Assembly: GCA_963717445.1 (NCBI GenBank)
Contig: OY970334.1
Span: forward strand, 3,987,704-4,051,703
Source: an uncultured Bacteroidota bacterium
GTDB taxonomy: Bacteria; Bacteroidota; Ignavibacteria; UBA10030; UBA8401
Length of the DNA: 64,000 nucleotides
Direction of reading: 5' to 3'
The notes below the pieces were generated by a model, which worked only from the letters and a program-made list of their open reading frames with translations, did no database searches and had not been told where the DNA came from. The position numbers and the translations under genes were made by a program. Positions 9,596-57,536 of this stretch are shown here, one piece after another (within the stretch, counting starts at the first letter, position 1; each line of letters begins with the position of its first letter).

Positions 9596-9598
9596 CGA

Positions 9599-9749
9599 GT
9601 AGTGTCCTAATTTGCCGGCCAAGTCATGGTGAGCGAAGTCTCACGAAGTGATGCCTTCTGCAGAACCATGACAAACAACTGAACGTCCTTCGACTTCGCT
9701 CAGGACGACTATTGAATATTTTCTTTCAAAAACCAAATTAGGACACTAC
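9599..9749. mobile_element. MITE-like element, 151 bp
   Basis: Perfect 16-bp terminal inverted repeats GTAGTGTCCTAATTTG (9599-9614) / CAAATTAGGACACTAC (9734-9749), flanked on both sides by CGA; no ORF. Confidence 0.7.
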
Positions 9750-9905
9750 CGAATGACCGAATGTATTTACGGGTCGACGTTTGGTTTACTTCTTTCCATG
9801 TTAACAATCACTTCCAGCGTTCCCTTCAAATTTTCCCTTGACTTTATTTCATTGATTAGTATATTCTATATAGATAGGGTTACTTTGCCATAATTTTGAG
9901 GAGTA

Positions 9906-12554: not shown

Positions 12555-14816
12555 TTGCATACTTCATCCCATCGAAATATCATTGCTTCGATCCTCGTCT
12601 TGCCTCTTCTTTTGTTGTTTACAGATCGGAGTTCTTCTCAAACCGAGTCCGATCGTCCTGCATCTGTTCCCGTGTCGTTGAGAAAAGCCGCCGATGATGA
12701 TGCGACAAAATATACCTCCGTCGGCAACGTTCGCATGACCATCACGAATTTCGGAACCCTCGGTACGAATTTCAATAATTGGCCTGCCCAGCCTTCATGT
12801 GAATATCCTAAAGGGTCGAGGATTGAGAACCTTGCCTTAGGAGGGTTATGGATTGGCGGCATCATACGCCAAGTAGGTGTTCCGACTGTTTCAACGGCTT
12901 GTGCGGATGGAGGGAATCCGTTACTCCTGGGAGCCGGTTTTGAATTCACAACCGAACCGGGGTCGCAGATCACTCAGCGCTCTTCGTTGTCCGGCGATAC
13001 TTATTATAGCGTCAATGCAGTGAGTCATCAGGATTTTGTGATGGACTTTACGGACCGATACACGCGCGATCCGGAGACGGGTGATTCTATACCGAACCAT
13101 ACGCCGATTGGACTGACAGTTCACCTGGAATCATACGCATGGAACTTTCCCTTCTCAGACTTTTTCGTAATTCTAAATTACACTATAAAGAACATTGGTA
13201 CCGATACGATAGACGGAATGTACGTCGGGGTGCGGAATGAAGGTGTCGTGCGCAATATGAATCTCTCCGGCTATCAAGCGAGCTCCGCCTTTTTTAGCAG
13301 CGGCAAGGGCTACATTGACAGCTTGCGGTTGGCATATACGTTCGATGTCAATGGTCAGCCGTATGGTCCTCCGGCGAACAGTTATTTTGGATTTAAGCTG
13401 CTCGGCACGAATCCGTTCCCTCTCAAACGTGATTCAACAGGAGCTTTTGGCGCTTTTTCCTTGGACTCGCTTGGCGACCTCTATAAAGACACGTATTACA
13501 ACGGATGGAAATATAATAACACGAGTTCTGGAACTGAGGCATATTTTTACCCCGATGTCGACAATAATCCGGGCGATCCCCCGCGTGGAAAATATCAGAG
13601 AATGTCGACCATGGAGGCGAGGAACTATATTCAATCGCTTGGTACGCCGCAGGGGACTCCAGTATTATCGGATGGTGTCACTCCCGGAATTGCACCATCG
13701 AATACTGTTGATCTTCTTTCTGTCGGACCTTTTCCTTCCCTCGCTCCAGGAGACACTCTTAATGTAGTCTTTGCAGTCGTTTGCGCAAAAAAAAGCGGAA
13801 CCGCTCTGCCGAGTGAAGACTACGACCCCAAGATAGGTCCGACATTACGAAAAACCCTCTATACGAACGCCGGCTGGGCACAACAGTGCTACAATGGCGA
13901 AGACCTGAACGGCAACAACAGACTCGATCCCGGCGAAGACATTATCGGGGATGGAAAACTTCACCGCTATATTCTTCCTCAACCGCCGCGCCAACCGCGT
14001 GTGCGCGCCGTAGTAGAGAACCAGCAGGCGATTATCTATTGGGACAGGACACAGGCAGAAGAAAGTTTCGACCCGATCTCTAAACAATATGATTTTGAGG
14101 GATATAGGATTTACCGTTCCCCCGCCGGAGCGGACATCAAAGATCCTACAGATTTCATTCTCTCGATGGACCTCGTTGGCGACTTTGACCGCGCAGACGA
14201 TAATATCGGCTATAACACCGGGTTTGGCGCAATCAAGCTTACCACTCCCAAAATGTTTCCCGGGGATACGGTCCAATATTGGTATCGTTTTCCTCCAATA
14301 TCAGATAATATTACAAGCTTGAACGGTTGGCAGTATTTGTACGGAGTTTCGGCGTACAGCCAGCCTGACTCAGCGGAAGGATTGCCAAGCCTTGAAAGTG
14401 CGAAGGTCATTGTTCGGGTCATTCCTGGAACGCCGCCGACCTCGGACAAATCTGTAGCCATCGGCGTCTATCCAAACCCGTACTACGCAGGAGCATCGTG
14501 GGATGGTTCCGGGGAGCGCGATCGTAAAATTTATTTTTATAATCTGCCTGCACATGCCGACATTAAGATATACACATTGAGCGGAGATCTCGTTACCGAA
14601 ATCATCCATGATGCCTCAACGTACGACGGATCGGATATCAAGTGGTTTCAGAATTTTTCCGGACTCGGCGTTTCCCCTCAGTTCGCCGGTGGCGAACATG
14701 CATGGGACCTGATTTCCAAGTATGACCAGGCGATTGCGACGGGACTGTATCTTTTTACCGTGAAGGACCTCTCGACAGGAACAATAAAAAGAGGAAAATT
14801 TGTCGTGATAAAATGA
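12555..14816 (+). CDS. Secreted hypothetical protein with FN3-like region and FlgD/T9SS-type C-terminal Ig domain
   Basis: Signal peptide; DLNGNNRLDPGED Ca-binding-like loop; FEGYRIYRS; VYPNPY...KIYTLSGDLV...WDL...GLYLF...GKFVVIK. Confidence 0.75.
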   Translation: MHTSSHRNIIASILVLPLLLLFTDRSSSQTESDRPASVPVSLRKAADDDATKYTSVGNVRMTITNFGTLGTNFNNWPAQPSCEYPKGSRIENLALGGLWIGGIIRQVGVPTVSTACADGGNPLLLGAGFEFTTEPGSQITQRSSLSGDTYYSVNAVSHQDFVMDFTDRYTRDPETGDSIPNHTPIGLTVHLESYAWNFPFSDFFVILNYTIKNIGTDTIDGMYVGVRNEGVVRNMNLSGYQASSAFFSSGKGYIDSLRLAYTFDVNGQPYGPPANSYFGFKLLGTNPFPLKRDSTGAFGAFSLDSLGDLYKDTYYNGWKYNNTSSGTEAYFYPDVDNNPGDPPRGKYQRMSTMEARNYIQSLGTPQGTPVLSDGVTPGIAPSNTVDLLSVGPFPSLAPGDTLNVVFAVVCAKKSGTALPSEDYDPKIGPTLRKTLYTNAGWAQQCYNGEDLNGNNRLDPGEDIIGDGKLHRYILPQPPRQPRVRAVVENQQAIIYWDRTQAEESFDPISKQYDFEGYRIYRSPAGADIKDPTDFILSMDLVGDFDRADDNIGYNTGFGAIKLTTPKMFPGDTVQYWYRFPPISDNITSLNGWQYLYGVSAYSQPDSAEGLPSLESAKVIVRVIPGTPPTSDKSVAIGVYPNPYYAGASWDGSGERDRKIYFYNLPAHADIKIYTLSGDLVTEIIHDASTYDGSDIKWFQNFSGLGVSPQFAGGEHAWDLISKYDQAIATGLYLFTVKDLSTGTIKRGKFVVIK

Positions 14817-39093: not shown

Positions 39094-39289
39094 GAATAGC
39101 GCATCGTTGCAAAACGAATCCAACTCTACCTGTGTTGGAATTAAGCAAAGCATTGTCTGCCTAAATTACATTTTTTGATACACATCAACTTTGCAGGATC
39201 GTCCCGGCTCGAAATGGCCACTATCCAAAAATTTCCTGCAGCGAGGTTAATTTTTCTCTATTTAATCAAAGCTTTATTCTAACCGGGTT

Positions 39290-39330
39290 GGGGTCGTAGC
39301 TCAGTTTGGTTAGAGCGCCTGCCTGTCACG
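39290..39330 (+). repeat. attL: displaced 5' fragment of tRNA-Asp
   Basis: GGGGTCGTAGCTCAGTTTGGTTAGAGCGCCTGCCTGTCACG, identity ending one base past the anticodon loop. Confidence 0.92.
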
Positions 39331-39392
39331 GTCGTGCCGAGGCTTCAAATTTCTTAGCATTCCTAAGCATTCTTGCAAATTTTCCCTTCAAG

Positions 39393-39416
39393 CGTCTAAC
39401 TTTTCTTCTAACACTT
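39393..39416 (+). repeat. Candidate integrase arm-type sites, left end
   Basis: CGTCTAACTTTT plus CTTCTAACACTT in tandem; the same 12-mer occurs twice at 57041-57064. Confidence 0.65.
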
Positions 39417-39479
39417 TCCCTAAAAAGAAGCTTCGCCAATCTTTCACCGAAAAACCATAAACATTAATTCGGAGGAAAT

Positions 39480-40484
39480 ATGGGAAGCCTTATTCGTCAC
39501 AAGTCAGGGGTCTACTACAGTATCACATCCTTAAACGGCAAGAGAGTCTGGCGATCCTTGCGTACAAAAAACCGCATGGAGGCGTACAAGAAATATCTTT
39601 CCGAGATCAAACCTGAAGTCAAGAAACCGAAGTCGCTCTCATTAACCGATGCCCAAGACCAATACTTGGACTATGTGAAAACTAACTTCTCGCCGAAAAC
39701 GGTTAGCATTTATCAAAACGTCTTTAAACTCTTCGATAGCTTTATTGGCGAAATGGATTTGCATGATATATCGACCCGCGATGTAGACATGTACAAGGCC
39801 AGCCGGATAAAAGATGTTTCAGCCAATACAGTCAATCATGACTTGCGAAGCCTGAAAGCATTCTTCAACCGTTTACTTGTTTGGAAGATGATCGAATCAA
39901 ACCCATGTAATGGAATAAAGACGATCAGAGTCGTCGATACGATCAGGCCATATCTTTCCAAAGAGGATCTCACAAAATTGCTCGCGTACACCAAGGGGAC
40001 TCAATTGCATGACATTATTTTGTTGGCTGCAATGACGGGTTTGAGGAGGGGAGAACTGCTTGGTCTGGCATGGGAGGATGTGGATTTGAAGCAAGGGACG
40101 CTTTTAGTCCATAGCACAATCGGCCACACAACGAAAGGGGGAAAGATCAGGCTCATTCCGATGAATTCAGCAGTCAGGGAGTTATTTGAGAGATTGCCGA
40201 AAAACGAGGGACCGATTTTTATAGGGGAGCGGGGAGGATGGAAGAAGGGAGATTTTGTTGGCAGGAGTTTCAAGAAGGCCATACGGGGTTGTGGATTGGA
40301 TCCGAAGCTTCATTTTCACTCACTCCGGCACACCTTTGCAAGCTTGCTTGTAAAAGAGGGAGTATCGCTTTATCATGTGCAGAGGCTCTTAGGGCATTCA
40401 TCCTCACGTGTCACGGAAATCTATGCACATCTGGGGACGACTGAGTTAAGCGGCTCGGTAGAAAAATTGGCAATGGCAGGCTAA
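39480..40484 (+). CDS. Tyrosine recombinase / integrase 1
   Basis: GLRRGE, TKGGK, HSLRH, LGH, EIY catalytic set intact; short N-terminal arm-binding-like region; GGAGG RBS. Confidence 0.93.
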   Translation: MGSLIRHKSGVYYSITSLNGKRVWRSLRTKNRMEAYKKYLSEIKPEVKKPKSLSLTDAQDQYLDYVKTNFSPKTVSIYQNVFKLFDSFIGEMDLHDISTRDVDMYKASRIKDVSANTVNHDLRSLKAFFNRLLVWKMIESNPCNGIKTIRVVDTIRPYLSKEDLTKLLAYTKGTQLHDIILLAAMTGLRRGELLGLAWEDVDLKQGTLLVHSTIGHTTKGGKIRLIPMNSAVRELFERLPKNEGPIFIGERGGWKKGDFVGRSFKKAIRGCGLDPKLHFHSLRHTFASLLVKEGVSLYHVQRLLGHSSSRVTEIYAHLGTTELSGSVEKLAMAG

Positions 40485-40613
40485 TTCGCTATTCTAAAAG
40501 CCCATATTTTCATTGTGAAATGGTATGTAACATGAAATAACATATCGTTTGCCATTCATACATATTTTGCTATATTTGTTACATATCAATTTTCTCAATA
40601 TTATCACATACAT

Positions 40614-41690
40614 ATGAAATTCAATTCTGATCAACCGTTTGAATTACCCCTTCTTCCACCGGCCTTAAACTTCAAGCATGAGGAATTTTTTGATATTCTA
40701 ATGAAGACGAGAACCGAGTTAGGCGAGTTAAACGGATATTCGTACACGCTTCCCAATCCAATATTGCTGCTTTCTCCCGCCGTACTCAAGGAGTCTGTTG
40801 CAAGTTCGAATATCGAAAATATCAACACAACGATGGAGGAGGCTTTACAAGCTCAACTCTTTCCAGATGCAGAACAGAAAAAGCCCGATAAAGAAGTGCT
40901 CCGGTACAGAGACGCCATCCAGTGGGGGTTTGAAAACCTCAAGAAAATCCCGATCTCGACTCGGTTGATTCTTGGGATTGAAAAAAAACTGATGCCGGAT
41001 AGAATAGAAGGATACAGGAGGACTCAGAATAAAATTACAAACGTCACGACAGGGAAAGCTCTCTATACTCCACCGACCGCTAACGAACTTCCCAGGCTGT
41101 TAGGCAACTGGGAGAATTTTGTCAATGCTGAAGACGATAACATCGACCCGCTTGTTAAATGTGCAATCGCTCACTACCAATTTGAAGCAATCCACCCATT
41201 TAGCGATGGCAATGGTCGAACGGGGAGAATCCTAATAGTATTGTTTCTAATTCAGCGGAAGCTTCTCTCATTGCCGATTCTCTATGTCAGCGGATACATC
41301 AACAAAAACCGAAACGAGTACTATCGGCTTTTGCGCGAAGTAAGCACAGAAGGAAAATGGCATGAGTGGATTCTCTTTATGCTAAAAGGCTACCACCTGC
41401 AAGCAAAAGGGACAAAGGAAGTCATTCTCCGGATTACAGAAATGCTTGAAGAAATGAAGGTGCTTCTCCGGACAAAGCACAGAAAAATCTATTCATCGGA
41501 CTTAGCAGAAGCGTTGTTTGCATATCCGATTGTTACGCCAATTAACCTTGGCAAAAGGTTAGACGTGAACTACCGAACGGCAAGCCGTTACCTTGTGGAA
41601 CTTGAGAAGGGGAAGGTTCTTAGTGAAAGTTACATTGGGAAGTATCATCTCTATTCAAACAAGCGATTGTTGAAAATGCTCAGATCGTAA
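40614..41690 (+). CDS. Fic-domain protein with inhibitory motif and C-terminal HTH
   Basis: HPFSDGNGRTGR; N-terminal SSNIEN matches (S/T)xxxE(G/N); VNYRTASRYLVEL helix-turn-helix. Confidence 0.92.
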   Translation: MKFNSDQPFELPLLPPALNFKHEEFFDILMKTRTELGELNGYSYTLPNPILLLSPAVLKESVASSNIENINTTMEEALQAQLFPDAEQKKPDKEVLRYRDAIQWGFENLKKIPISTRLILGIEKKLMPDRIEGYRRTQNKITNVTTGKALYTPPTANELPRLLGNWENFVNAEDDNIDPLVKCAIAHYQFEAIHPFSDGNGRTGRILIVLFLIQRKLLSLPILYVSGYINKNRNEYYRLLREVSTEGKWHEWILFMLKGYHLQAKGTKEVILRITEMLEEMKVLLRTKHRKIYSSDLAEALFAYPIVTPINLGKRLDVNYRTASRYLVELEKGKVLSESYIGKYHLYSNKRLLKMLRS

Positions 41691-41793
41691 AGTGTGTTTT
41701 GTATTGGGCGCATTACGATTACTGCAATACGCTGGAGTTAAAGAAGCTTCTATAATTATTGTATAACTATGGCACATATAATTTAATTTGCCA

Positions 41794-41880
41794 TCTTCTT
41801 CACGGGTAACGGAAATCTATGCTCATCTTGGAACTACGGAATTGAGCGGTTCGGTAGAAAAATTGGCGATGGCAGGATGA
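41794..41880 (+). pseudogene. Second, synonymously recoded copy of the last 28 codons of integrase 1
   Basis: Encodes SSSRVTEIYAHLGTTELSGSVEKLAMAG*, identical to 40398-40484 in protein, with 15 nt differences. Confidence 0.9.
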
Positions 41881-41910
41881 CGCTTTTATATCTCATGCAG
41901 AGGCACAGCA

Positions 41911-42123
41911 ATGAATATCAGGATTAGGATCGAGAAACTTGAATTGCCCAGGCGAAAATTGCGAGAGGAAGAAGCACGGCTGGAAGAAGAAGCAAGAAAA
42001 GCAGGATTTAGTCTCGATGAATATAAAGAAATCAAAAAACAAATTGCCGCATTGTCCCCTGAGGAGCTAATAGAACTGGCGGGGATGACACTCACGAAAG
42101 AACTTGAATCCGAGAACGAGTGA
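41911..42123 (+). CDS. Small hypothetical coiled-coil protein
   Basis: GAGG RBS; N-terminus MNIRIRIEKLE resembles the ORFs at 55124 and 55462. Confidence 0.6.
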   Translation: MNIRIRIEKLELPRRKLREEEARLEEEARKAGFSLDEYKEIKKQIAALSPEELIELAGMTLTKELESENE

Positions 42124-42169
42124 GTGAATATTTACATTTACCAAGATTCCGGAGGACGCCAGTGGCAAA

Positions 42170-42226
42170 TTTTCGTTTGCCTACGCTCTTTCGGTGACCT
42201 TGAGCGACTTGTTAGGGCGCCACGTT
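42170..42226 (-). other. Truncated integron attC site (left half only)
   Basis: Minus strand AACGTGGCGCCCTAAC-AAGTCGCTCAAGG directly after the ATPase stop; no matching GTTRRRY arm seen. Confidence 0.65.
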
Positions 42227-42431
42227 AGAAAGCCTTACCTTGAGTGATATTTAAGCCGTCCCGGTAGATCATCGGAATTTTATAGCTAATGCCGAATTCC
42301 TCAAGAAAGCCTATGTCCACAAGGAGTCTAATCTTGGTTCGTAACTCCTCGTCTTGGGATTGACCTGCCCCCCAAAAACCGATCCACTCTGAAGTTAGAA
42401 AATTTTATATTGTGGATCAACGGAGGCAGCA

Positions 42432-42710
42432 ATGAGCAGAAAAAAGCATACAGCGGAGGAGATCATCAACAAACTGCGAGAAGCAGAGGTCTTGCAGGCT
42501 AAGGGGATGTCGATCGAGGAAGTGATGCGACAGCTTGGAATAAGCGATGCAACGTATTACAAGTGGCGGAGGGAGTATGGAGGCCTACGGGTTGATCAGG
42601 CAAAGCGATTGAAGGAGCTAGAACAGGAGAACAGCCGATTGCGGAGGGTCGTGGCGGATCTGACGATTGATAACTCGATCTTGAAGGAAGCCTCACGGGG
42701 AAACTTTTAA
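42432..42710 (+). CDS. IS3 transposase OrfA
   Basis: HTH region (ISDATYYKWRREYGG) and leucine zipper LKELEQENSRLRRVVADL. Confidence 0.93.
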   Translation: MSRKKHTAEEIINKLREAEVLQAKGMSIEEVMRQLGISDATYYKWRREYGGLRVDQAKRLKELEQENSRLRRVVADLTIDNSILKEASRGNF

Positions 42711-42754
42711 GCCCGGTCAAACGGCGCCGGGCAGCGGAAGAGATCCAGGAAGAA

Positions 42755-43552
42755 ATGATCGTATCAGAGCGACGAGTATGCCGTGTATTGGGACAAGCAC
42801 GATCAACGCAGCGACAAGAGCACAGAGCCAGCGAAGAAGAAGAACGCCTTACACAGCGCATCACAGAGCTGGCATGTCAATATGGGCGTTATGGCTATCG
42901 TCGGGTAACCTTGTTACTGAGGACTGAAGGATGGCGTGTGAACCACAAGCGAGTCGAACGGATATGGCGTCAGGAAGGCCTGAAAGTGCCCAAAAGGCAG
43001 CGCAAGCGACGACGTCTATGGCTCAATGATGGATCCTATATCCGACTGAGACCAGAACACAAGGATCACGTCTGGAGTTATGATTTTGTTGCAGACAGAA
43101 CGAGTAATGGAAAACCGTTAAGGATGCTCAACGTGATCGACGAGTACACCAGAGAATGCCTGGCGATCAGGATTGACCGGAAGCTTACCTCGAACGATGT
43201 TGTGGAGGCTTTAGCAGAATTATTTGTGACGAGGGGAACCCCGGCACATATCCGCTCGGACAATGGACCGGAGTTTATTGCAGAGGCAGTACGAACATGG
43301 CTTCAACGGCTCGGTGTGGATCCACTCTTTATCGAACCGGGAAGTCCTTGGGAGAACGGATACATCGAATCATTCAACGGAAAGTTAAGAGACGAGTTGC
43401 TTAATGGAGAGATCTTTGATACAATTACGGAGGCAAAGGTTGTGACGGAACGATGGAGGAACTACTACAACAAAATCAGACCACACAGTTCGTTAGGCTA
43501 CAAACCACCGGCACCGGAAACATTTTATTCACTTCAGGTTGCCAATGCCTGA
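42755..43552 (+). CDS. IS3 transposase OrfB (DDE)
   Basis: WSYDF, RSDNGPEF, PWENGYIESFNGKLRDE, RPHSSLGY. Confidence 0.95.
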   Translation: MIVSERRVCRVLGQARSTQRQEHRASEEEERLTQRITELACQYGRYGYRRVTLLLRTEGWRVNHKRVERIWRQEGLKVPKRQRKRRRLWLNDGSYIRLRPEHKDHVWSYDFVADRTSNGKPLRMLNVIDEYTRECLAIRIDRKLTSNDVVEALAELFVTRGTPAHIRSDNGPEFIAEAVRTWLQRLGVDPLFIEPGSPWENGYIESFNGKLRDELLNGEIFDTITEAKVVTERWRNYYNKIRPHSSLGYKPPAPETFYSLQVANA

Positions 43553-44969
43553 AAAAATTAACTAACTTAACATTGGCACATAAACTGGGGGCAGGTCACG
43601 ATAGAGTAGCGGAATCATATTCAGATTTTTTGTCGCGGAAGGCTTGAATGAGATATGCGCTCTCGCCTGCTTCCGCAAGAAGAGTGTCTTCGACACGTTC
43701 TTGGCTTAGCGAGGTTAGTCCTCTCTTAATCGAGTCAGCCTGAAAGATTGACTCACCCACTTTCAGGGCGCGTGGATCGCGTTCTTCTTTGCGAATTTGA
43801 ATGTCTCGAGCTTTCTTAAGTAGATCGATTAAATTGCGAGGGGGCTTGACACCGTTACCATCACGAATTCGGGATAAGATCCAGGTCCACGTCAAAGGTT
43901 TTTTTTCTCCAACGTCGATTTGTTCAGGGAAGAAAAATGCGAAGATTTCTTTCTTAGTTCTTCCGCCAAGGTTTGCCTCATTGATGACTTTCGAGTTATT
44001 CATTATTCGACGCATCAAAAGGTCGAAGAGGTCCTCGTCGTTCCAAGTCACGGCTATTCTTCGGGCATTTACGTGGGTGAGGTTTACGAAGCCGCCTTCT
44101 ATTATTTTTCTAAACAAATCGTTCCTCACAAACAGCTTAAGGCGGATGTTCTCGAATTCGAGCAAATCGAGGTATGTTCTGAATAACGCACGAAGAGCTG
44201 GTTTTTCAGTATTTGGGAATCCTTGGAATGCTTCATCAAGTCTATCAATTACGACCCATGCTTTTAGTTCAATCTGAGCAAGAACTTGATTGAGAAGGAG
44301 AAATGCTTCATAATGGTCAACGACAGGATGCGGTGAGTCACGGGGAGGAGCCTCTTCTCCAAACTCTACTTTTGGTACCAGGATAGGCATTCCTTGTGGA
44401 CTAATCGTCATTTTTAATTCGACGGACTTTGGAGTGATTAATCTCTGAACAACATTAACCAATTTGGAGAAAACGGTGTTGGGTGTATCATCAACTGTGC
44501 GTAAATCAATTTTCTTGAGAAGATCGTCCAACTCGATCATTTCGTCAGAGTAAGATCCTTCATAAACCTGTAGAATCCAATTGCCAACAAGTGAGATGAT
44601 GTAAGCTTTCCAGATTGTCAAGTATTGCCCTTCATCAAGAACTTTCGTTTGTGCAAGGCGTTGGAAAACTGGATTGCCCGAAGGATTGAATCCGGTGATT
44701 ATCTCGGTGTCTTCAAGAGAGGCGATTGATCTGTATGTGCTTTGGAGGATTTTATAGAGTGACGTTTTACCGGTTCCTTTGTCGCCGGCTATAATGTCGC
44801 CTTTGTCTCCAATTAAAGAGCGAAAGGTATCGGTTTCCACGAAGTACTCTTGGAGGCCAGTGTCAAATTCAGCGACTGAACTTCCGAGGTTCAGGTCCTT
44901 CAGTATTTCTAATGGTGTCATTTTGATCTCCTCGTTCTAATGCATTATGTGTTGTGACGAAACGTGGCG

Positions 44970-47024: not shown

Positions 47025-50000
47025 GTGAAAAATAAGAGTGCGATGAAACAGGTTGTCATCGAAAACCCGATTCTAAATTCCCCATTCAAGGAGCCGGCCC
47101 GCCATTTCCGATTCTCGGACGAAGGTATCACTAACGAGATTGTTGAAGGTCGCAGGATTAGTTCCTACTTCATCCCGATAGCCAAACCCCGAAAAAAAGG
47201 CGGGAATCAACTTACCTTCGATACTGAATGGACTGAAGATCGCATTGAAGAGAACAAGTTCATCAATCAAGTGCGAGAGCGGGTTGCACAATGGAGAAAT
47301 CAAGGGTATCCGTCTTCGAGCATTACCAAGACCACAAAGCAATTGCTTGAATATTGGCAACACGAGGATCGTACTCGGAAACTCTTCTTCTGTCAAATTG
47401 AAGCTGTAGAGACTGCCATCTATCTAACCGAGGTAGCCAAAAAATACGGTGATACCTGGATCGACAATAAGATTCATGCCGCCAATCTCGAAGCGAATCC
47501 GTTGCTCTACAGGGTCGCCTTTAAGATGGCTACCGGTTCCGGCAAAACTGTTGTCATGGCCATGATCATTGCATGGCAAGCGCTCAACAAGATTGCGAAC
47601 TCTCAGGACTCGCTTTTTTCCGATTCGTTCTTGATTGTCACACCGGGCATTACAATTCGTGATCGACTGCGCGTGCTGCTACCGAACGATCCGCAAAATT
47701 ACTACAAAGCGATGGACATAGTTCCGCCGGATTTGCTTGAGGAACTTGGTAAAGCTAAAATCATCATTACAAACTTTCATGCGTTTGGGCGGCGAGAAAA
47801 AGTTGCTGCTGGCAAACTTACAAAGAGCATTCTGAGTAAAGGTGACACATCCGTTTTTACTGAGACGCCCGACCAAATGGTCCGACGTGTCTGTCGAGAG
47901 CTTGGCAGCAAAAAAAACATCGTTGTAATCAACGATGAAGCACATCACTGCTACAGACGAAAAGCAGACGGTGAGGAAGAAATGCTTAAAGGTGATGAAC
48001 GCAAGGAAGCCGAGAAGCGTGAAGAGGAAGCGAGGATTTGGATTTCAGGACTTGAGGCTGTCAAAGCGAAACTTGGCCTCAAGGTTGTCTACGATCTTTC
48101 GGCTACTCCGTTCTTTTTGCGTGGATCAGGTTACCCAGAAGGGACGTTGTTCCCCTGGGTGGTATCAGATTTCTCGTTGATCGATGCAATAGAGTGCGGT
48201 ATCGTCAAGGTTCCTCGTGTCCCGGTTTCTGATGATTCGATGGTGGGGGATCAACCAACGTACCGCGATCTTTGGCTTCGCATCCGAGAACATTTGCCCA
48301 AAAAGGGACGTAAAACTCAGGCGCTTGAGGGAGAGCCCAATCTCCCAGTGGAACTCGAAGGTGCACTCCAGAGCCTATATCTCAACTACGAGAAGTACTA
48401 CAGAAAGTGGGAGCAAAACACTGAGGCTCGTTCACGTGGCCTTACCCCTCCGGTCTTCATCGTAGTCTGCAACAACACCAACGTTTCAAAGATGGTGTAC
48501 GACTATATTGCCGGATGGGAAAAAGAACTCCAAGACGAAGAAAGGATTGTAGTTCCTGGTAAACTCTCCCTCTTCAATAACGAAGAAAATGGAAAATGGA
48601 GTGCAAGACCGAACACGATCCTTGTGGACAGCCAGCAATTGGAATCGGGGGAAGCGATGAGTGATGATTTCAAGAAAATTGCTGCTGCCGAGATAGAAGA
48701 GTTCAAAGCAGAGTATCGCCTTCGTTTTCCAGGCCGGGACGTTGACATCCTAACGGACGAAGATCTACTTCGTGAGGTCATGAACACGGTGGGCAAACTT
48801 GGTAAACTTGGTGAGCAGATCAAATGCGTGGTAAGCGTGTCGATGCTAACCGAAGGGTGGGATGCAAATACTGTCACCCACATCCTTGGTGTGCGTGCCT
48901 TCGGTACACAACTGTTATGTGAACAGGTTGTCGGGAGAGGACTGCGCCGCATGAGCTATGCTGCAAATGAAAAGGGACACTTCATGCCCGAATACGCTGA
49001 GGTATATGGCGTACCGTTCTCCTTCATTCCCTCGGCAGGATCGGCTGTCGATCCAAGGCCCGGCCCAATGCCAACAAGAGTTCGTGCGCTTGAAGACCGA
49101 GTGGCCTGCGAGATTACGTTCCCTCGTCTTACTGGTTACCGATATGAACTGCCCGCTGAAAAACTTACGGCAAAGTTTACAGATGCTTCTCGAATGGCAT
49201 TATCAACTGCTGACATCCCAACCAAGACGGAGAATGCACCAATCGTTGGAGAAACGAGTATTCACACTCTCGACAAACTGAAACTGCGACGTGAGCAGGA
49301 AGTGATATTCCTGCTTTCTAAGTTTGTCTTAGAACGCTACTTGCGGGATGCTGATGACAATACAAAGCCGTGGCTATTCCCCCAACTGCTCCGCATCGCG
49401 AGAGATTGGCGCAACCAATGTGTTACGCTAAAAGACAACACCTTTGTTCAGCTGCTATTGCTCATCGAGTTCGCTAACCAAGCTGCTCAAAAAATCTATC
49501 ATGCAATTGTCAACGCAGATGAAGGCGGGAAGCGACTGATGCCGATTCTGCGACCATTCGATACTATCGGTTCCACTCGTTATGTTGACTTCGATACAAC
49601 TCGTTCCACGTATCGAACTCGTGAGGACCGGTGCCATGTGAACGATGTTGTTCTGCACAGTGGGTGGGAGGGGAAGATGGCGCAGACGCTTGAGGACATG
49701 GAAGATGTTTTCTGCTACGTTAAGAACCAGAATCTCGGGTTCACGATTCCATACACATTGGATTCCGAGGAGCACAACTACGTCCCCGACTTCATCGTGA
49801 AAGTAAATGATGGTCATGGGAAAGAAGACCTATTGAACCTTGTTATTGAGGTAACCGGTGAGAAGAAGAAGGACAAACAGGTGAAGGTATCAACTGCAAA
49901 GACACTTTGGATTCCTGCAGTGAATAATCACAGCGGTTTTGGACGATGGGACTTCTTGGAGATTGAAGATCCCTGGGATGCAGCTCATTCAATCATTGAC

Positions 50001-50258
50001 TTCCTGAGACAGAGAGGTGATTCACAAGCTATCATACAGAAAACCTCCGATGTATCGGGGGGTGAGGCATGTATCCGTAATACAAGGATTGCTGTATGGA
50101 CGATCATCAGCCTAATTAAGCTCGGATCTTCAGACGCTGACATAATCAAAGCATATCCTTCCCTGGATATGGTTGATCTTCAATCTGCTCGGTTTTACTT
50201 TGACCGGCACACTGATGAAATTGAGCAATCAATCAAGCAGCACGAGGAGGCAGATTAG
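47025..50258 (+). CDS. res: Type III restriction endonuclease Res (BPTD_3080-like) with C-terminal DUF433 fusion
   Basis: MATGSGKT, NDEAHH, SATP, MLTEGWD, QVVGRGLRR, PDF...IEVTG; then in frame SGGEACIRNTRIAVWTII...IIKAYPSL (DUF433-like). Confidence 0.88.
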   Translation: MKNKSAMKQVVIENPILNSPFKEPARHFRFSDEGITNEIVEGRRISSYFIPIAKPRKKGGNQLTFDTEWTEDRIEENKFINQVRERVAQWRNQGYPSSSITKTTKQLLEYWQHEDRTRKLFFCQIEAVETAIYLTEVAKKYGDTWIDNKIHAANLEANPLLYRVAFKMATGSGKTVVMAMIIAWQALNKIANSQDSLFSDSFLIVTPGITIRDRLRVLLPNDPQNYYKAMDIVPPDLLEELGKAKIIITNFHAFGRREKVAAGKLTKSILSKGDTSVFTETPDQMVRRVCRELGSKKNIVVINDEAHHCYRRKADGEEEMLKGDERKEAEKREEEARIWISGLEAVKAKLGLKVVYDLSATPFFLRGSGYPEGTLFPWVVSDFSLIDAIECGIVKVPRVPVSDDSMVGDQPTYRDLWLRIREHLPKKGRKTQALEGEPNLPVELEGALQSLYLNYEKYYRKWEQNTEARSRGLTPPVFIVVCNNTNVSKMVYDYIAGWEKELQDEERIVVPGKLSLFNNEENGKWSARPNTILVDSQQLESGEAMSDDFKKIAAAEIEEFKAEYRLRFPGRDVDILTDEDLLREVMNTVGKLGKLGEQIKCVVSVSMLTEGWDANTVTHILGVRAFGTQLLCEQVVGRGLRRMSYAANEKGHFMPEYAEVYGVPFSFIPSAGSAVDPRPGPMPTRVRALEDRVACEITFPRLTGYRYELPAEKLTAKFTDASRMALSTADIPTKTENAPIVGETSIHTLDKLKLRREQEVIFLLSKFVLERYLRDADDNTKPWLFPQLLRIARDWRNQCVTLKDNTFVQLLLLIEFANQAAQKIYHAIVNADEGGKRLMPILRPFDTIGSTRYVDFDTTRSTYRTREDRCHVNDVVLHSGWEGKMAQTLEDMEDVFCYVKNQNLGFTIPYTLDSEEHNYVPDFIVKVNDGHGKEDLLNLVIEVTGEKKKDKQVKVSTAKTLWIPAVNNHSGFGRWDFLEIEDPWDAAHSIIDFLRQRGDSQAIIQKTSDVSGGEACIRNTRIAVWTIISLIKLGSSDADIIKAYPSLDMVDLQSARFYFDRHTDEIEQSIKQHEEAD

Positions 50259-50594
50259 TTGGCCAAACTATACACCAATGAGAATTTCCCTCAGCCTTCA
50301 GTTGATGAACTTCGCAGATTAGGATATGACGTACTCACTTCGCATGAGGCTGGAAACTCAAATCAGCGAATCCCGGACCCCGATGTTCTTAATTATGCAA
50401 CTGAAAAAGAAAGAGTACTAATTACCTTCAACCGGAAACACTTCATAGCTTTGCACAAATCAAATGGTGTGCACTCCGGTATCGTAGTATGCACCGTGGA
50501 CAACGATTTCGTGGCGTTGGCGCAAAGGATAGACGTGGAACTTAAACAGAACGGTAACCCTGCTGGTATGCTGATCAAAGTCAACAGGCATTGA
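50259..50594 (+). CDS. DUF5615 PIN-like protein (putative toxin)
   Basis: LYTNENFP...LRRLGYDV...DPDVLNYA...RVLITFNRKHF...HSGI; TTG start right after the res stop, GAGGAGG RBS. Confidence 0.85.
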   Translation: MAKLYTNENFPQPSVDELRRLGYDVLTSHEAGNSNQRIPDPDVLNYATEKERVLITFNRKHFIALHKSNGVHSGIVVCTVDNDFVALAQRIDVELKQNGNPAGMLIKVNRH

Positions 50595-50618
50595 AGGTCT
50601 CGTCAATAGGACAAACCG

Positions 50619-53420
50619 ATGGCAAAACAAAAAAAGAAAAAAAGGGATGCGAAGATCGTCTACTCAACCCCCGTAGAGCACATGAAGCATCGTGACAAAA
50701 GGGTGAACATTCCCACAGAAGAGTTGCGGGACTTCGTAGCTGAAGATGAGAAGGCGCCCCAAAAGATGTTGTACCCCCGTGATCCGTCGCTCGACCCACA
50801 GCTGGTGTGGAAGGGAAAAGACGAGCAGGACTCAAAGCCTTTAGAAGTTCCCATTGTGCCTATCTACATTCAGGAGAAAATTCACCCTCAGGCGATTGTT
50901 GAGGATTTAAGGGCTCAAGCTCGAAAGGAAAAACCAGAAGATCAGGTTGGTTTATTTGATGACTTCAACGGCATTAACTTCGAGGAAATGATCGATTTCT
51001 ACCAACACGAGCAAAATTGGACAAATCGTGCGATTCTCGGTGACTCACTACTTGTTATGACCTCTCTCTCCGAAAAGGAAGGGCTGAAAGGAAAAGTACA
51101 GAGCATTTACTTTGATCCACCGTACGGTATTAAGTTTGGTTCCAACTGGCAGGTGTCCACCAGGCGGAAAGATGTAAAGGACGGTAAAGTGGAGGACACA
51201 ACGCGGCAACCAGAACAAATCAAAGCATTTCGTGACACATGGGAGAACCACATACACTCTTACCTTGCGTATCTTCGGGATAGACTCGTCGTCTGTCGAG
51301 ATTTGTTGACGGAAAGCGGAAGCCTCTTCGTTCAGATCGGAGAGGAAAACGTGCATCTTGTCAGATCAGTTCTTGACGAAGTGTTTGGGGCCGAGAATTT
51401 CTGCAGTCAAATTGCTTTTAGAACTGCAACAAGCCAGCCAACCACTTTGATTTCATGTGTCTACGATTTTGTTCTTTGGTATGGCAAAGTCAAAAGAGAT
51501 GTAAAATACCGCACGCTAAATCGAGAACGCGAGTACTTTGAGAAAATATCGACCTTTGGCTGGATTGAATTGCAGAACGGACAAGAAAGAACTCTCTCTG
51601 CCAAAGAAAAGAGAGGCGAAATCGCATTACCAGAAGGGGGCAAGCTTTTTAAGGACGCAGATATTACACTCGTGCGTAAACCCGACAAACCATACCAACA
51701 TCCGAGATTCAAAGGGAAGGAATTTCCGCTTTCACTTCAGCTTCGATATGTAGATGGCATTGAGAGGCTTGTTGCAGACGATAGAGTCGTTGTTGTAAAT
51801 GATCGCCTTTGCGGAAAACGATATGAGAGTGACATCCCTTACGTGAAGTATAATTCTGTTTGGGACGATACTATGCAAGGGACTTTCGAGCTGACAAAAG
51901 ACCCAAAAAAATATGTAGTGCAAACAGCACCGAAGGTGATACAGCGTTGTCTTCTTATGACCACTGAACCCGGGGACCTTGTGCTTGATCCGACCTGCGG
52001 TAGTGGCACAACCGCATTTGTCGCCGAACAATGGGGACGGCGGTGGATTACCATTGATACGTCGCGGGTAGCTCTCGCGCTGGCTCGCACGCGTCTCATG
52101 GGAGCGAAATTCCCTTATTACCTTCTCTCAGACTCAGCGGATGGAGCCCAAAAAGAGGCAGAAATTACGGGTAAAATCCCCTCAAGCATAGTTCCAAAAA
52201 GAGAAAATGACATCAAAAAAGGGTTCGTGTATCGACGAATCCCTCACATCTCGCTCAAGTCTATTACAAACGACAGACAGATCGACGCTATTTATGCGAA
52301 GCGACAAGGGAATCTTGACGCAATTCGTGCCGAGTTAAACACGTCTCTCAAGCAGTCATGGGAGGACTGGCAAGTACCAGGAGAAGCAGACCAAACATGG
52401 CCACACAAGACTAAGCAATTCCACGCAGAGTGGTGGAAGCTGTACCGTGAACGGCGGAAAGAGATTGATGACCTTATAGCACGTCATTCTGATACCGAGT
52501 TGCTGTACGATCAGCCGTACGAGGACAATAAGCGCATTAGGGTGACCGGTCCGTTTACTGTCGAATCACTTTCCCCTCACCGGGTACTCTCAACCGCAGA
52601 CGATGATCGCGATGGAAAATTCTCTGAACAAGAAGCAATGCAGCAACAAGACTTCGTCTCGATGATCCTTGATAATCTCCGGAAAGCGGGTGTTCAGAAT
52701 ACAGTAAGAAAAGAGCGACTCAAATTTGATCGACTCGATTCGTTTGCGGGGGTCTGGCTCCATGGTTCGGGTGAGTATTCGGAGAATGGCAAGAGGAAGC
52801 GAGTAGTCATATCTATCGGTCCTGAACATGGAACGGTCGGACCACAACTCATCAAAGAAGCAGCTAAGGAGGCGGTATTGGGGGTTGGTTTTGACTTGCT
52901 CATTGTCTGTGGCTTTGCCTTCGATCCCCACGTTTCCGAAGAGGCGAAACGGTACGGCAAGCTCACTGTCCTCATCGCCCGAATGAATCCCGACCTTGCA
53001 ATGGGTGATGAACTGCTCAAGAAGACTGGAGCAGGCAACCTCTTCATGGTGTTCGGTGAGCCGGACATGGAAGTGAAAAAGCAAAAGGATGGTAAGATCA
53101 TCGTCACTATCAAAGGTCTTGATGTCTACGATCCAACCACAGGTCAGATCCGCTCAAGTACTACAGACGACATTGCATGCTGGTTCATCGATACGAACTA
53201 CAACGGCGAGAGCTTCTTCGTGCGTCATGCTTACTTCACTGGTGCGGATGAGCCATACGAAAAACTCAAGCGAGCCCTCCGAGCCGAGATCGACGAGGCC
53301 GCATGGTCTGCCCTCTACTCCACCAAGAGCCGTCCCTTTGATACACCGATCACAGGAAAGATTGCCGTGAAGGTAATAAATCACTTCGGTGATGAGGTGT
53401 TGAAGGTCTATGATTTGTAA
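50619..53420 (+). CDS. mod: Type III DNA methyltransferase Mod (beta-class motif order)
   Basis: YFDPPY (motif IV), a variable central region, then VLDPTCGSGTT (motif I). Confidence 0.9.
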   Translation: MAKQKKKKRDAKIVYSTPVEHMKHRDKRVNIPTEELRDFVAEDEKAPQKMLYPRDPSLDPQLVWKGKDEQDSKPLEVPIVPIYIQEKIHPQAIVEDLRAQARKEKPEDQVGLFDDFNGINFEEMIDFYQHEQNWTNRAILGDSLLVMTSLSEKEGLKGKVQSIYFDPPYGIKFGSNWQVSTRRKDVKDGKVEDTTRQPEQIKAFRDTWENHIHSYLAYLRDRLVVCRDLLTESGSLFVQIGEENVHLVRSVLDEVFGAENFCSQIAFRTATSQPTTLISCVYDFVLWYGKVKRDVKYRTLNREREYFEKISTFGWIELQNGQERTLSAKEKRGEIALPEGGKLFKDADITLVRKPDKPYQHPRFKGKEFPLSLQLRYVDGIERLVADDRVVVVNDRLCGKRYESDIPYVKYNSVWDDTMQGTFELTKDPKKYVVQTAPKVIQRCLLMTTEPGDLVLDPTCGSGTTAFVAEQWGRRWITIDTSRVALALARTRLMGAKFPYYLLSDSADGAQKEAEITGKIPSSIVPKRENDIKKGFVYRRIPHISLKSITNDRQIDAIYAKRQGNLDAIRAELNTSLKQSWEDWQVPGEADQTWPHKTKQFHAEWWKLYRERRKEIDDLIARHSDTELLYDQPYEDNKRIRVTGPFTVESLSPHRVLSTADDDRDGKFSEQEAMQQQDFVSMILDNLRKAGVQNTVRKERLKFDRLDSFAGVWLHGSGEYSENGKRKRVVISIGPEHGTVGPQLIKEAAKEAVLGVGFDLLIVCGFAFDPHVSEEAKRYGKLTVLIARMNPDLAMGDELLKKTGAGNLFMVFGEPDMEVKKQKDGKIIVTIKGLDVYDPTTGQIRSSTTDDIACWFIDTNYNGESFFVRHAYFTGADEPYEKLKRALRAEIDEAAWSALYSTKSRPFDTPITGKIAVKVINHFGDEVLKVYDL

Positions 53421-55465: not shown

Positions 55466-55722
55466 GTCTCAAGATACGAATCAAAGATTTGGAAAAAAAG
55501 AAGAACCCAACGGATCAAGGCCCAAAAAGTCACGTCATCATCTTCACTCCAGGTGTTGATAACGTTGATGCGCTGGTTGCCGAATATCGAAAAAAAGATA
55601 GCGAAAGCTTCCTCTTTGTCATCCCGCGATTCATGCGAAGGACAGAATTATCCGATATGAGTGCTCAAAGCGGAAATAATAACGATTCGAAACAGAATGG
55701 ATCCCAGTTAGGACGACCGTGA
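55462..55722 (+). CDS. Small hypothetical protein
   Basis: N-terminal MSLKIRIKDLE; GTGA overlap with integrase 2. Confidence 0.65.
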   Translation: MSLKIRIKDLEKKKNPTDQGPKSHVIIFTPGVDNVDALVAEYRKKDSESFLFVIPRFMRRTELSDMSAQSGNNNDSKQNGSQLGRP

Positions 55723-56975
55723 ATCCGAGTTTTTTGATACCGGAAGACATATTGTTGGAACCTCGGCTCCTCCAAGTGTACTGTTACTTGTTGAGGATGG
55801 TTTGTAATGAGCCGACGAAAATTCGTAAAGACGGGGTTATGGTGGAATTGAGGAGGCTGGAAGTAGCAATTTTAGGAAGAGACATCTCCCACGATCTTGC
55901 TTTACCGATGAGTGACATCGAACCGCTTTTGAACAAATTGGTCGAGGTAGAGCGAATCATAGTTGACAGAAAGGACGACCTTATGAAAATACGATTCATG
56001 AAATTGCTCTTCCCGCGGTCGAGTGATAGTTCAAACGATGAAAGCCTCCGGGGGGATGTCAGCGACTATTGGCTCGACGATTTCAAAACCGACTACCAGG
56101 AATATGTACAGACGAACCTTTCCCAAAAGTCACTTGATAATGCAAAAAGAGTGATGAAATTATTCTGCAATTTCGTTGGGAAAAAGAAGTTGGGCTACAT
56201 CAGGTCATCAGATGCGGAGGACTTCAAACAAATGCGCAAGAATCAAAAATCTCGCGTTTCAGATGCTACTATCAACATGGATATTAGAACCCTTAAGGCC
56301 GCATTCCAATTCGCAGTGGATGTAGGGAAACTTCATGAAAATCCATTCCGAGCTGTAAAGCAAATTCGATGTCCGCGAAAGCAAATGGCAACTTTCAGTC
56401 ATACAGAGTTTAAGCATTTGACTGGTCATATCAAAGAGCCCTGGCTGCTGGACATAGTCAGATTTGACGTGAATACTGGACTCCGACGAGGAGAAATTGT
56501 AAACCTACGTTGGAAGGATGTTGATCTGGCGAACAAACGCATGTTGATTCAATCATCAGCAGAGTACCAAGTGAAGCATGGAAAGTTTCGCCAAGTCCCT
56601 CTCAATAAGGCAGCATTGGGAATAGTCAAAAGACAAAGTAAGGAAACTGAGTGGGTGTTCTCTGACAGCAATGGGTATAAGTTTGTCGATGAATTTGTTT
56701 CGAAGAAATTCAAAGGGTATGTGAGGCTCTGCAAGCTTTCGGAGGAATTACATTTTCATTCTCTTCGGGCAACGTTTGCAACTTGGGCAATTGCGGCGGG
56801 AATGTCGATCTATGCTGTGAAGGCGATCTTGGGCCATGCGTCAGTGAAGACATCGGAAACCTATGCTTCATACGAAATGGACGCACTTCAGAAGGAAGTC
56901 GAAAAGATTGTTTTGGTCGAAGAAGCAGAGGAATTCAAAGCACCGCTGAAGCTTGTAGGCAAAAAACGATCTTAG
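55719..56975 (+). CDS. Tyrosine recombinase 2 with ~110-aa N-terminal winged-helix-like extension
   Basis: GLRRGE, VKHGK, HSLRA, LGH, ETY intact; core region resembles integrase 1. Confidence 0.9.
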   Translation: MNPSFLIPEDILLEPRLLQVYCYLLRMVCNEPTKIRKDGVMVELRRLEVAILGRDISHDLALPMSDIEPLLNKLVEVERIIVDRKDDLMKIRFMKLLFPRSSDSSNDESLRGDVSDYWLDDFKTDYQEYVQTNLSQKSLDNAKRVMKLFCNFVGKKKLGYIRSSDAEDFKQMRKNQKSRVSDATINMDIRTLKAAFQFAVDVGKLHENPFRAVKQIRCPRKQMATFSHTEFKHLTGHIKEPWLLDIVRFDVNTGLRRGEIVNLRWKDVDLANKRMLIQSSAEYQVKHGKFRQVPLNKAALGIVKRQSKETEWVFSDSNGYKFVDEFVSKKFKGYVRLCKLSEELHFHSLRATFATWAIAAGMSIYAVKAILGHASVKTSETYASYEMDALQKEVEKIVLVEEAEEFKAPLKLVGKKRS

Positions 56976-56991
56976 GAGTACAAAAATGCTA

Positions 56992-57020
56992 TTGCAGAAC
57001 GCAAACAATTTTCTTATATT
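56992..57020 (+). promoter_or_regulatory. Element-encoded putative promoter for tRNA-Asp
   Basis: TTGCAG-N17-TATATT inside the element, about 115 nt upstream of the tRNA. Confidence 0.5.
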
Positions 57021-57040
57021 GATTTCGAAGACTTGGGAAG

Positions 57041-57064
57041 CTTCTAACACTTCTTCTAACACTT
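57041..57064 (+). repeat. Candidate integrase arm-type sites, right end
   Basis: CTTCTAACACTT twice in perfect tandem. Confidence 0.7.
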
Positions 57065-57135
57065 TTTCACGTTGGAGGAGAGAAGAAAAACGCTGAATGG
57101 TGTCGGAAATGCTGAAAAGTCTAAGAAATATGCAC

Positions 57136-57210
57136 GGGGTCGTAGCTCAGTTTGGTTAGAGCGCCTGCCTGTCACGCAGGAAGTCGCGAGTTCGAGTCTC
57201 GTCGGCCCCG
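57136..57210 (+). tRNA. trnD: tRNA-Asp (GTC)
   Basis: Acceptor stem GGGGTCG/CGGCCCC, anticodon stem CCTGC/GCAGG with GTC, T-arm GCGAG-TTCGAGT-CTCGT; CCA not encoded. Confidence 0.97.
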
Positions 57211-57536
57211 CAGAAAATGGAAATACAGTGCGGCTAATGTTGGTCGCCCGCCATCTTTCAGGCGGGTCGGCCCCGCAGAAAATGGAAATACAGTGCGGCT
57301 AATGTTGGTCGCCCGCCATCTTTCAGGCGGGTCGGCCCCGCAGAAAATGGAAATACAGTGCGGCTAATGTTGGTCGCCCGCCATCTTTCAGGCGGGTCGG
57401 CCCCGCACAAAATGGAAATGGAGTGCGGCTATTCTCGCTCGCCCGCCATCTTTCAGGCGGGTCGGCCCCGCACAAAATGGGAATGCCTCGCGGCTATTCT
57501 CGCTTGCCCTCCATCTTTCAAAGGGGTCGGACCCGC
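57201..57536 (+). repeat. 65-bp tandem repeat, five copies plus a partial, each starting with the last 10 nt of tRNA-Asp
   Basis: Units start at 57201, 57266, 57331 (identical), 57396, 57461 (progressively diverged), 57526 (partial). Confidence 0.95.

Follow-up and report, generated by a model that had tools for sequence, protein, structure and literature searches.

Islands that share an attachment (att) site in a tRNA gene can accrete one behind the other and then be reduced by decay and deletion, a route of island evolution that has been described before (PMC5704250, citing Pavlovic et al. 2004). Here we consider a 17.8-kb island of an uncultured Bacteroidota bacterium (Ignavibacteria), which lies in a 64,000-nt stretch of contig OY970334.1 (assembly GCA_963717445.1), hereafter the window, whose own numbering is used throughout. 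The island occupies a tRNA-Asp gene and contains two copies of the 3' end of its tyrosine recombinase (integrase) gene, one on either side of a gene for a SoFic-type Fic protein, that encode the same peptide in different DNA. We call the intact integrase int_A, its native end copy 1 and the downstream repeat copy 2. Our comparisons indicate that copy 2 is probably what is left of the tail of a second integrase, int_B, and that the window probably records the fusion of two related tRNA-Asp islands, most likely by tandem accretion and subsequent deletion.

In the ICESt1/CIME elements of Streptococcus thermophilus (Pavlovic et al. 2004; reviewed in PMC5704250), two related elements occupy the same tRNA att site, one of them retaining its integrase and the other having lost it, with outer att sites bounding the whole and relics of recombination genes lying inside; the window is alike on all these counts. 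It differs from those elements in that the internal att copy that defines a CIME or a tandem array is gone, in that its family consists of small defence islands in which no conjugation genes were seen, and in that its att repeat corresponds to the 5' part and not the 3' part of the tRNA. The locus is a new example of a known event, namely the fusion of related islands with an integrase relic left behind, and represents an ordinary scar that indicates no new mechanism.

Phage 21 and the element e14 in the icd gene of Escherichia coli offer a different parallel: they integrate within a coding gene and bring with them a diverged replacement 3' end. There, as in the window, two 3' ends of one gene bracket a segment of DNA and differ mostly at synonymous positions, each having been a working end. 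Phage 21 and e14, unlike the bracketed segment of the window, possess their own integrase, defined att ends and a recurrent site; in the window, by contrast, one junction falls at random within a hairpin, and it is the gene's own native end that forms the upstream copy.

The Fic protein between the copies shares with the SoFic proteins, which act as single-gene anti-phage systems (PADLOC SoFic; PMC12249575), the Fic_N, Fic and SoFic-like_C domains, the catalytic HPFxDGNGRxGR motif and an N-terminal inhibitory SxxxEN motif, and like them it is found in a defence island, here with a type III restriction-modification system. It is unlike them in falling below the NCBIfam equivalog cut-off, and is treated here as a putative defence gene.

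An integrase 3' end present twice

Both copies are 87 nt long and encode SSSRVTEIYAHLGTTELSGSVEKLAMAG, a run of 28 residues, followed by a stop codon (Table 1). They differ at 15 nt: 14 are synonymous third-codon changes and the remaining one is the second base of the stop (TAA against TGA). This corresponds to about 14 changes over 21.7 synonymous sites (pS, the synonymous divergence, 0.646) and none over 62.3 non-synonymous sites (dN 0), an all-synonymous outcome that was reached in 0 of 200,000 simulated random placements of 14 substitutions. The pattern had been described in a sequence-only reading of the locus, and the pair comparison bears that description out. A repeat search also recovered the pair (family D2). 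Similarity sets in at 40398 and 41794, respectively, with the first Ser codon past a conserved Gly-His; the DNA 5' of copy 2 is interrupted by in-frame stops and resembles the integrase in none of its frames. With 83% identity and a longest identical run of 17 nt, the copies would be poor substrates for loss of the Fic gene by homologous recombination.

The arrangement is real and not an assembly artefact, since a contig of 4238 nt from an NCBI metagenome-assembled genome (MAG) and two Logan contigs from two different runs match the window at 100% over one or both copies. The stretch 41454-42390 is, in addition, covered by one single Logan unitig.

Table 1. Features of the tRNA-Asp island, in window coordinates
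Feature	Position	Strand	Remarks
attL: 5' tRNA-Asp fragment of 41 nt, running from acceptor stem to anticodon loop; left boundary of island	39290..39330	+	perfect direct repeat of 57136-57176
int_A: intact tyrosine recombinase, 334 aa	39480..40484	+	PF00589 at 2e-32 (residues 158-318); phrog_1 integrase; 85-95% identity to relatives
Copy 1: native 3' end of int_A, codons 307-334 + TAA	40398..40484	+	contiguous with spacer and IR1 as in L016, L058, L001
Spacer + IR1: promoter-like region of Fic gene	40485..40613 (core 40525-40608)	+	conserved in seven loci
SoFic-type Fic protein adenylyltransferase (predicted), 358 aa	40614..41690	+	Pfam Fic_N, Fic, SoFic-like_C; PADLOC SoFic 1.1e-108
IR2: truncated hairpin, left arm 41760-41774, right arm reduced to TGCCA(T)	41749..41793	+	full hairpin in L058, L016
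Illegitimate junction of type A and type B blocks, 1 nt (T) common to both parents	41793..41794	.	homology switch point
Copy 2: relic of second integrase (int_B), codons 307-334 + TGA, untranslatable as integrase	41794..41880	+	collinear with type B integrase end and orf70
orf70: conserved 70-aa gene, normally ~30 nt past the integrase stop in type B	41911..42123	+	homologues right behind the integrase in type B loci
IS3-family insertion sequence: orfA 42432-42710, orfB 42755-43552	42361..43599	+	Pfam HTH_Tnp_1, rve; 3-bp GAT target duplication
Another intact tyrosine recombinase (418 aa; 35% identity with int_A) at right end of island	55719..56975	+	tblastn; open reading frame; PF00589 at 2.7e-30
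attR: intact tRNA-Asp(GTC), first 41 nt = right att copy	57136..57211	+	ARAGORN; Rfam tRNA 68.8 bits; repeat D3

Two layouts in one family of islands

Scans of genome and metagenome contigs together with protein look-ups yielded about 25 related loci (designated by L numbers), with integrases that are 58-95% identical. All of them come from uncultured Bacteroidota/Ignavibacteria-like bacteria, and most have the same tRNA-Asp fragment upstream. They document small defence islands of one family, with SoFic, type III restriction-modification and other systems as cargo, which integrate in the 5' half of tRNA-Asp and are reshaped mainly by deletions.

Two gene orders recur. In type A the integrase is followed by a 40-nt spacer, a conserved block with inverted repeats (IR1), the SoFic gene and a long hairpin (IR2). 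Loci L001 and L002 match the window collinearly over 39288-41698 and L058 over 39290-41794; L016 retains the integrase, IR1 and IR2 (93% identical to 41752-41794), the Fic gene having been lost except for a remnant of its start. None of these four type A relatives contains a second integrase end. In type B the integrase is followed, after a gap of about 30 nt, by a homologue of orf70 (L015, L017, L022, L024, L059, L060-62 and L066), a gene whose product gave no hit in Pfam, PHROGs, NCBIfam or PADLOC and has no family assigned to it. The IR1 of type B islands lies farther downstream, with an intact or a decayed Fic gene (L022, L059, L060, L067), so that the Fic module is an old component of the family that is not tied to the integrase end. 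Both types also occur separately at the same att site, type A in L001, L002, L016 and L058 and type B in L015, L059 and L060-62.

Loss of parts is seen elsewhere in the family. Most of the Fic gene is gone in L016 and L059, and in L067-72 the integrase has been deleted up to its stop codon. Locus L066 has a frameshifted integrase with its orf70, insertion sequence (IS) remnants, and a second integrase relic ending in HLGTTELKESVERLAFAV and a stop, with a second orf70 homologue; the relic and this 47%-identical homologue lie at 3089-3387 of that locus, 2 kb past the frameshifted integrase and its orf70. A string resembling an integrase stop 5' of IR1 in L059 was rejected as a further relic, as it is the end of an unrelated 121-aa open reading frame (ORF).

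Copy 2 belongs to a type B integrase

The stretch 41794-42091 aligns in one piece to the 3' end of a type B integrase plus orf70 (75-82% nucleotide identity), and copy 2 with orf70 is collinear with the integrase end and orf70 of L015, L017, L022, L024, L060 and L066. The closest relative of copy 2 is L022, with 8 differences over 87 nt and the same TGA stop. Copy 1 is separated from L022, L015 and copy 2 by 14-15 differences and from both L001 and L016 by 19; its changes relative to L022 comprise 13 synonymous and no non-synonymous ones. The spacer behind the stop of int_A is 95% identical to that of L016, and no step in identity is seen at 40398 when the window is compared with L058 or L001. 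From the collinearity, the difference counts and the absence of a step at 40398 it follows that copy 1 is the native end of the resident integrase and copy 2 a type B tail. The copies are of two-lineage origin, and the DNA on each side is collinear with one of the two layouts. Asked which copy matches the Fic-less relatives, a check that the sequence-only reading had proposed, the comparison points to copy 2 (8 against 14 differences from L022, the TGA stop and the collinear orf70). As judged from its sequence, 41794-41880 is the dead 3' end of a type B integrase, a pseudogene fragment without a function of its own, and should be annotated as such.

The identity of the two peptides has a simple cause. 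The 28-residue tail is identical in the integrases P0002 (88% overall identity), P0007 (78%) and P0009 and in those of L022, L058 and L066, and differs by one to four residues in other members of the clade; pS between clade integrases is 0.47-0.64, against 0.646 between the copies. The same protein thus appears in recoded DNA because the tail is invariant in the clade while synonymous divergence between the lineages has already reached this level. The recoding is the normal synonymous divergence of two integrase lineages, and any two members would show the same pattern. The earlier suggestion that both copies evolved under purifying selection as integrase ends, and do not stem from a recent duplication, is upheld by this agreement of the copy divergence with that between clade members. 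L022 was also used to ask whether the 5' part of int_A goes with the A or the B lineage: against it, pS is 0.52 for codons 202-306 (37 of 71 sites), 0.60 for copy 1 and 0.37 for copy 2 (8 of 22), with too few sites to separate these values. More generally, whenever two lineages of a conserved gene are brought together, an identical protein in recoded DNA is a trivial outcome, and such pairs are good markers of island fusion.

The junction at 41793/41794

Homology of the window to L058 and L016 stops at 41793/41794, where it gives way to homology with the 3' integrase ends of L022, L015 and L066; the DNA behind IR2 in L058 and L016 has no counterpart anywhere in the window. In these two loci IR2 forms an 18-22-bp stem of the form TGTATAAYTATGGCA-loop-TGCCATAGTTATACA, whereas the right arm of the window version breaks off after TGCCA(T) and is followed directly by copy 2. 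The DNA fold z-scores reflect the truncation (-8.4 in L058, -6.0 in L016, -1.8 in the window). In an aligned reconstruction the presumed A parent reads ...TGCCAT/AGTTATACAG and the B parent ...GGGGCATT/CTTCTTC..., with a single T shared by the two. As the cut lies within the right arm of IR2 and only 1 nt is common to the partners, the junction is illegitimate: it broke a conserved hairpin of the A partner and truncated a gene of the B partner, and no mobile unit ends here. Deletions are known to be frequent at long palindromes, and the IR2 palindrome may explain the left breakpoint. IR2 was also considered as a recurrent cassette boundary and rejected in that role, the motif being found solely in the window, L016 and L058.

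Probable fusion of two islands, and the alternatives

We think it probable that the left part of the island, 39290-41793, represents a type A element (att fragment, int_A, IR1, SoFic and IR2), and that the DNA from 41794 onwards represents the rest of a type B element with its order of integrase and orf70. A type A element would have been resident at tRNA-Asp, next to the AKR flank, when a type B element integrated site-specifically into the tRNA reconstituted by the former, giving a tandem array. One illegitimate deletion, reaching from the right arm of IR2 to codon 306 of int_B, would then have removed the distal cargo of the A element, the internal att copy and 92% of int_B. The outcome would be a composite island with a single left integrase between the outer att sites. 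With L016 the window has in common its AKR flank, P' arm, spacer (95%) and IR2 (93%), which suggests that the whole left block is taken up by a resident type A element of vertical descent. Parallel decay is evident in the family, as in the L066 relic, the integrase loss of L067-72 and the Fic loss of L016 and L059.

Several points weigh against this account. The internal att copy is absent, the window containing just two copies of the 41-nt repeat; no remnant of the int_B 5' part survives, and the tandem intermediate, which we infer together with the single deletion, is not seen directly. A full-length type B integrase near-identical to copy 2 was not found in the collections searched. Looking for the type B donor through orf70, by protein search and contig look-ups, returned only the same strain (100%) and relatives at 82% or less; in run X2 the stretch 41839-42153 is present at 100% identity, without an L022-like integrase there, and the samples of runs X2 and X4 contain 41839-42175 at 100%. 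The island also holds an unrelated second intact integrase at its right end. Finally, the family's integrase genes are mosaic in their own right, which makes other routes of recombination possible: when identity is scanned segment by segment the mosaicism is general, with the window integrase 90-91% identical to both L016 and L015 in 39701-39950 and copy 1 closest to L058, and no breakpoint is seen at 40398.

Such a route would be a one-sided homologous replacement (homology-facilitated illegitimate recombination), in which type A DNA entered a resident type B island by a homologous crossover within or upstream of its integrase gene and an illegitimate one at IR2 and codon 307 of int_B, so that a segment of integrase 3' part, IR1, Fic and partial IR2 displaced the old 3' end. 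It would yield the same final structure, with copy 2 and orf70 of the Fic-less type and one illegitimate junction with 1-nt microhomology, and a crossover within the mosaic integrase of the window is conceivable. It needs two crossovers, though, one of them in DNA of about 80-85% identity, whereas the deletion needs one event; the AKR flank, P' arm, spacer and IR2 shared with L016 favour a resident type A left block, and there is no discontinuity at or near 40398. We regard this replacement as rather unlikely, while noting that it is the nearest workable form of what the sequence-only reading had advanced. The latter held that a module of a replacement 3' end plus Fic had been inserted into the integrase gene, at a possible hotspot of cargo swapping or by a nested element targeting that gene.

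Taken literally, such a nested cassette of integrase 3' end plus cargo, inserting site-specifically at the boundary GH/SSS, is very improbable. It would account for the repeats bracketing a single defence gene and for the restored integrase frame, but 40485-41793 includes no recombinase or defined end, Fic being its sole gene; its right end is a truncation within a hairpin that continues intact in L058 and L016; and the block of integrase, IR1 and Fic is old, with the same collinear order in L001, L002 and L058, similarity that runs unbroken through 40398, and just one integrase end in the type A relatives. IR1, together with Fic or what remains of it, is also found away from the integrase in L022, L059, L060 and L067. 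Among the roughly 25 relatives there is no allelic cargo between two integrase ends, and the only other relic, that of L066, has a different breakpoint, so that the proposed hotspot does not hold up. Copy 1 does contain TGTCACGG, a string that also reads across the end of the att repeat at attL, taking in its final bases and the one base that follows; this post-hoc 8-mer lies off the similarity boundary and is absent from copy 2, which shows GGTAACGG in its place, and we take it as chance and not as an att-core link. Joints of deleted or circular forms were absent from the Logan contigs of four runs, compared with 39200-42500 and with L022, which is weak evidence as contigs cannot show rare variants. 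Nor does the segment resemble an integron-like cassette: integron integrase models reach 78.9 bits against a cut-off of 265, and the IR2 motif occurs once per island (window, L016 and L058).

It is likewise improbable that the conserved integrase 3' end is a regular homology anchor through which promoter-plus-defence modules (IR1-SoFic) recombine into resident islands; if it were, displaced integrase tails would be footprints of a recurrent route of cargo exchange. Repeats can mislead assemblers, and a chimeric assembly, or a recent tandem duplication that was later 'recoded', would be the most trivial source of the two copies. Both are scarcely credible given the 100%-identical MAG and Logan contigs and the unitig across the junction, a divergence at the between-lineage level and the closer relationship of copy 2 to L022; moreover, 14 synonymous and no non-synonymous changes cannot accumulate in a non-coding relic.

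The SoFic gene and its surroundings

The translated Fic protein contains the HPFSDGNGRTGR motif and the inhibitory motif SSNIEN, with the Fic consensus HxFx(D/E)GNGRxxR and the SoFic architecture both present, and is 91-94% identical to the Fic proteins of L001, L002 and L058. Its score against NCBIfam ProtAdlyltaseSoFic is 311.6 bits, under the cut-off of 550, and it is thus better called SoFic-like than an equivalog.

IR1 combines TTTG-N19-TAtaTTTG with the inverted sequences ATGTAACAT/TGTTACAT in a conserved block of about 85 nt, which reaches into the ORF behind it, whatever that ORF is, and takes in its initial five codons (MKFD-). By the Bacteroidetes -33/-7 consensus the former motif reads as a putative promoter, and IR1 may combine a putative promoter and operator. 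The block (window, L016, L022, L058, L059, L060 and L067) persists even where Fic has decayed, and is distant from the integrase in L022, L059, L060 and L067.

A 47-aa antitoxin, AS1, is reported to be encoded downstream of E. coli Sofic (PMC12249575). In the window orf70 now lies behind SoFic and the broken hairpin, instead of behind an integrase. A link between orf70 and SoFic is not indicated, since type A relatives carry SoFic without orf70; as an improbable side possibility, the event might have been kept for placing orf70 right behind SoFic as an AS1-like partner.

Attachment sites and tRNA-Asp

The 41-nt fragment at the left end is repeated perfectly as the first 41 nt of tRNA-Asp, so that the 17.8 kb between the repeats constitute an integrated island. 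The start of int_A is 150 nt from attL, and the same layout of tRNA-derived direct repeats with an adjoining integrase is seen in more than eight relatives. The same tRNA-Asp fragment precedes the integrase in L001, L002, L015, L016, L058, L060 and L061, and a shorter part of it in L059 and L062. The tRNA-Asp(GTC) gene is the sole tRNA gene of the window, and an Rfam scan of the window found no family besides tRNA. An extra 3.7 kb between AKR and the att fragment of L001 was examined as a decayed element and rejected, as it consists of ordinary chromosomal genes.

Islands in tRNA genes usually duplicate the 3' end of the tRNA, and the present one does the reverse. Its att repeat is the 5' part and the intact gene stands at the end distant from int_A; therefore the island must provide the 5' half of the tRNA and a promoter-like region upstream of it. 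There is similarity between 56983-57135 and the DNA that precedes the att fragment of L002. Repeats of the CTAACA type, which occur on both arms (at 39390-39417 and at 57038-65), may represent arm sites.

Right behind tRNA-Asp, 57201-57536 consists of 5.2 tandem copies of a 65-nt unit (93% matches), each with GTCGGCCCCGCA, the 3' acceptor end of the tRNA, beside a T-arm-like hairpin CGCCCGCC-ATCTTTC-AGGCGGG. The array thus consists of mimics of the tRNA 3' end, and similar single copies lie behind tRNA-Asp in L003. In that locus the intact tRNA-Asp is accompanied by an ORF of GIY-YIG-like type and by copies similar to the 3' half of the tRNA that have an additional stem in the T arm (9214-9865 and 12712-12800); these bracket a 2.9-kb mini-island that consists of the integrase and two genes.

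Recombinases and other cargo

In the translation of int_A the motifs RRGE, HSLRHTF, LLGHSS and EIYAH are readable, in keeping with the R..K..HxxR..H..Y signature of tyrosine recombinases. The 418-aa recombinase at the other end of the island points towards the intact tRNA.

The IS3-family element behind orf70 breaks the last 43 codons (3' end) of a minus-strand gene for a P-loop ATPase (43596-44921; PADLOC PDC-M28C-like), and its removal in silico restores a 484-aa ORF ending at 42225 (minus strand, 42225-44921). Contig depth jumps at 42361 and is about five times higher across the IS, which is therefore multicopy. In L066, too, the right end of a related IS lies behind orf70.

In loci L067-L072 (e.g. 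9830-20198 of L067) the decayed island still has orf70, followed by IR1, a Fic gene (39% identity at the protein level) and genes for a PLD/SNF2 helicase-nuclease and for an MmeI-type methyltransferase, with a gene for a giant surface protein adjoining. In the window the cargo includes a type III restriction-modification pair with DUF433 and DUF5615 modules: in the operon-like stretch 47025-53420 the Res subunit has a C-terminal DUF433 and is followed by a DUF5615 (PIN-like) gene. This combination resembles a DUF433/PIN toxin-antitoxin pair that may have been fused into the restriction system.

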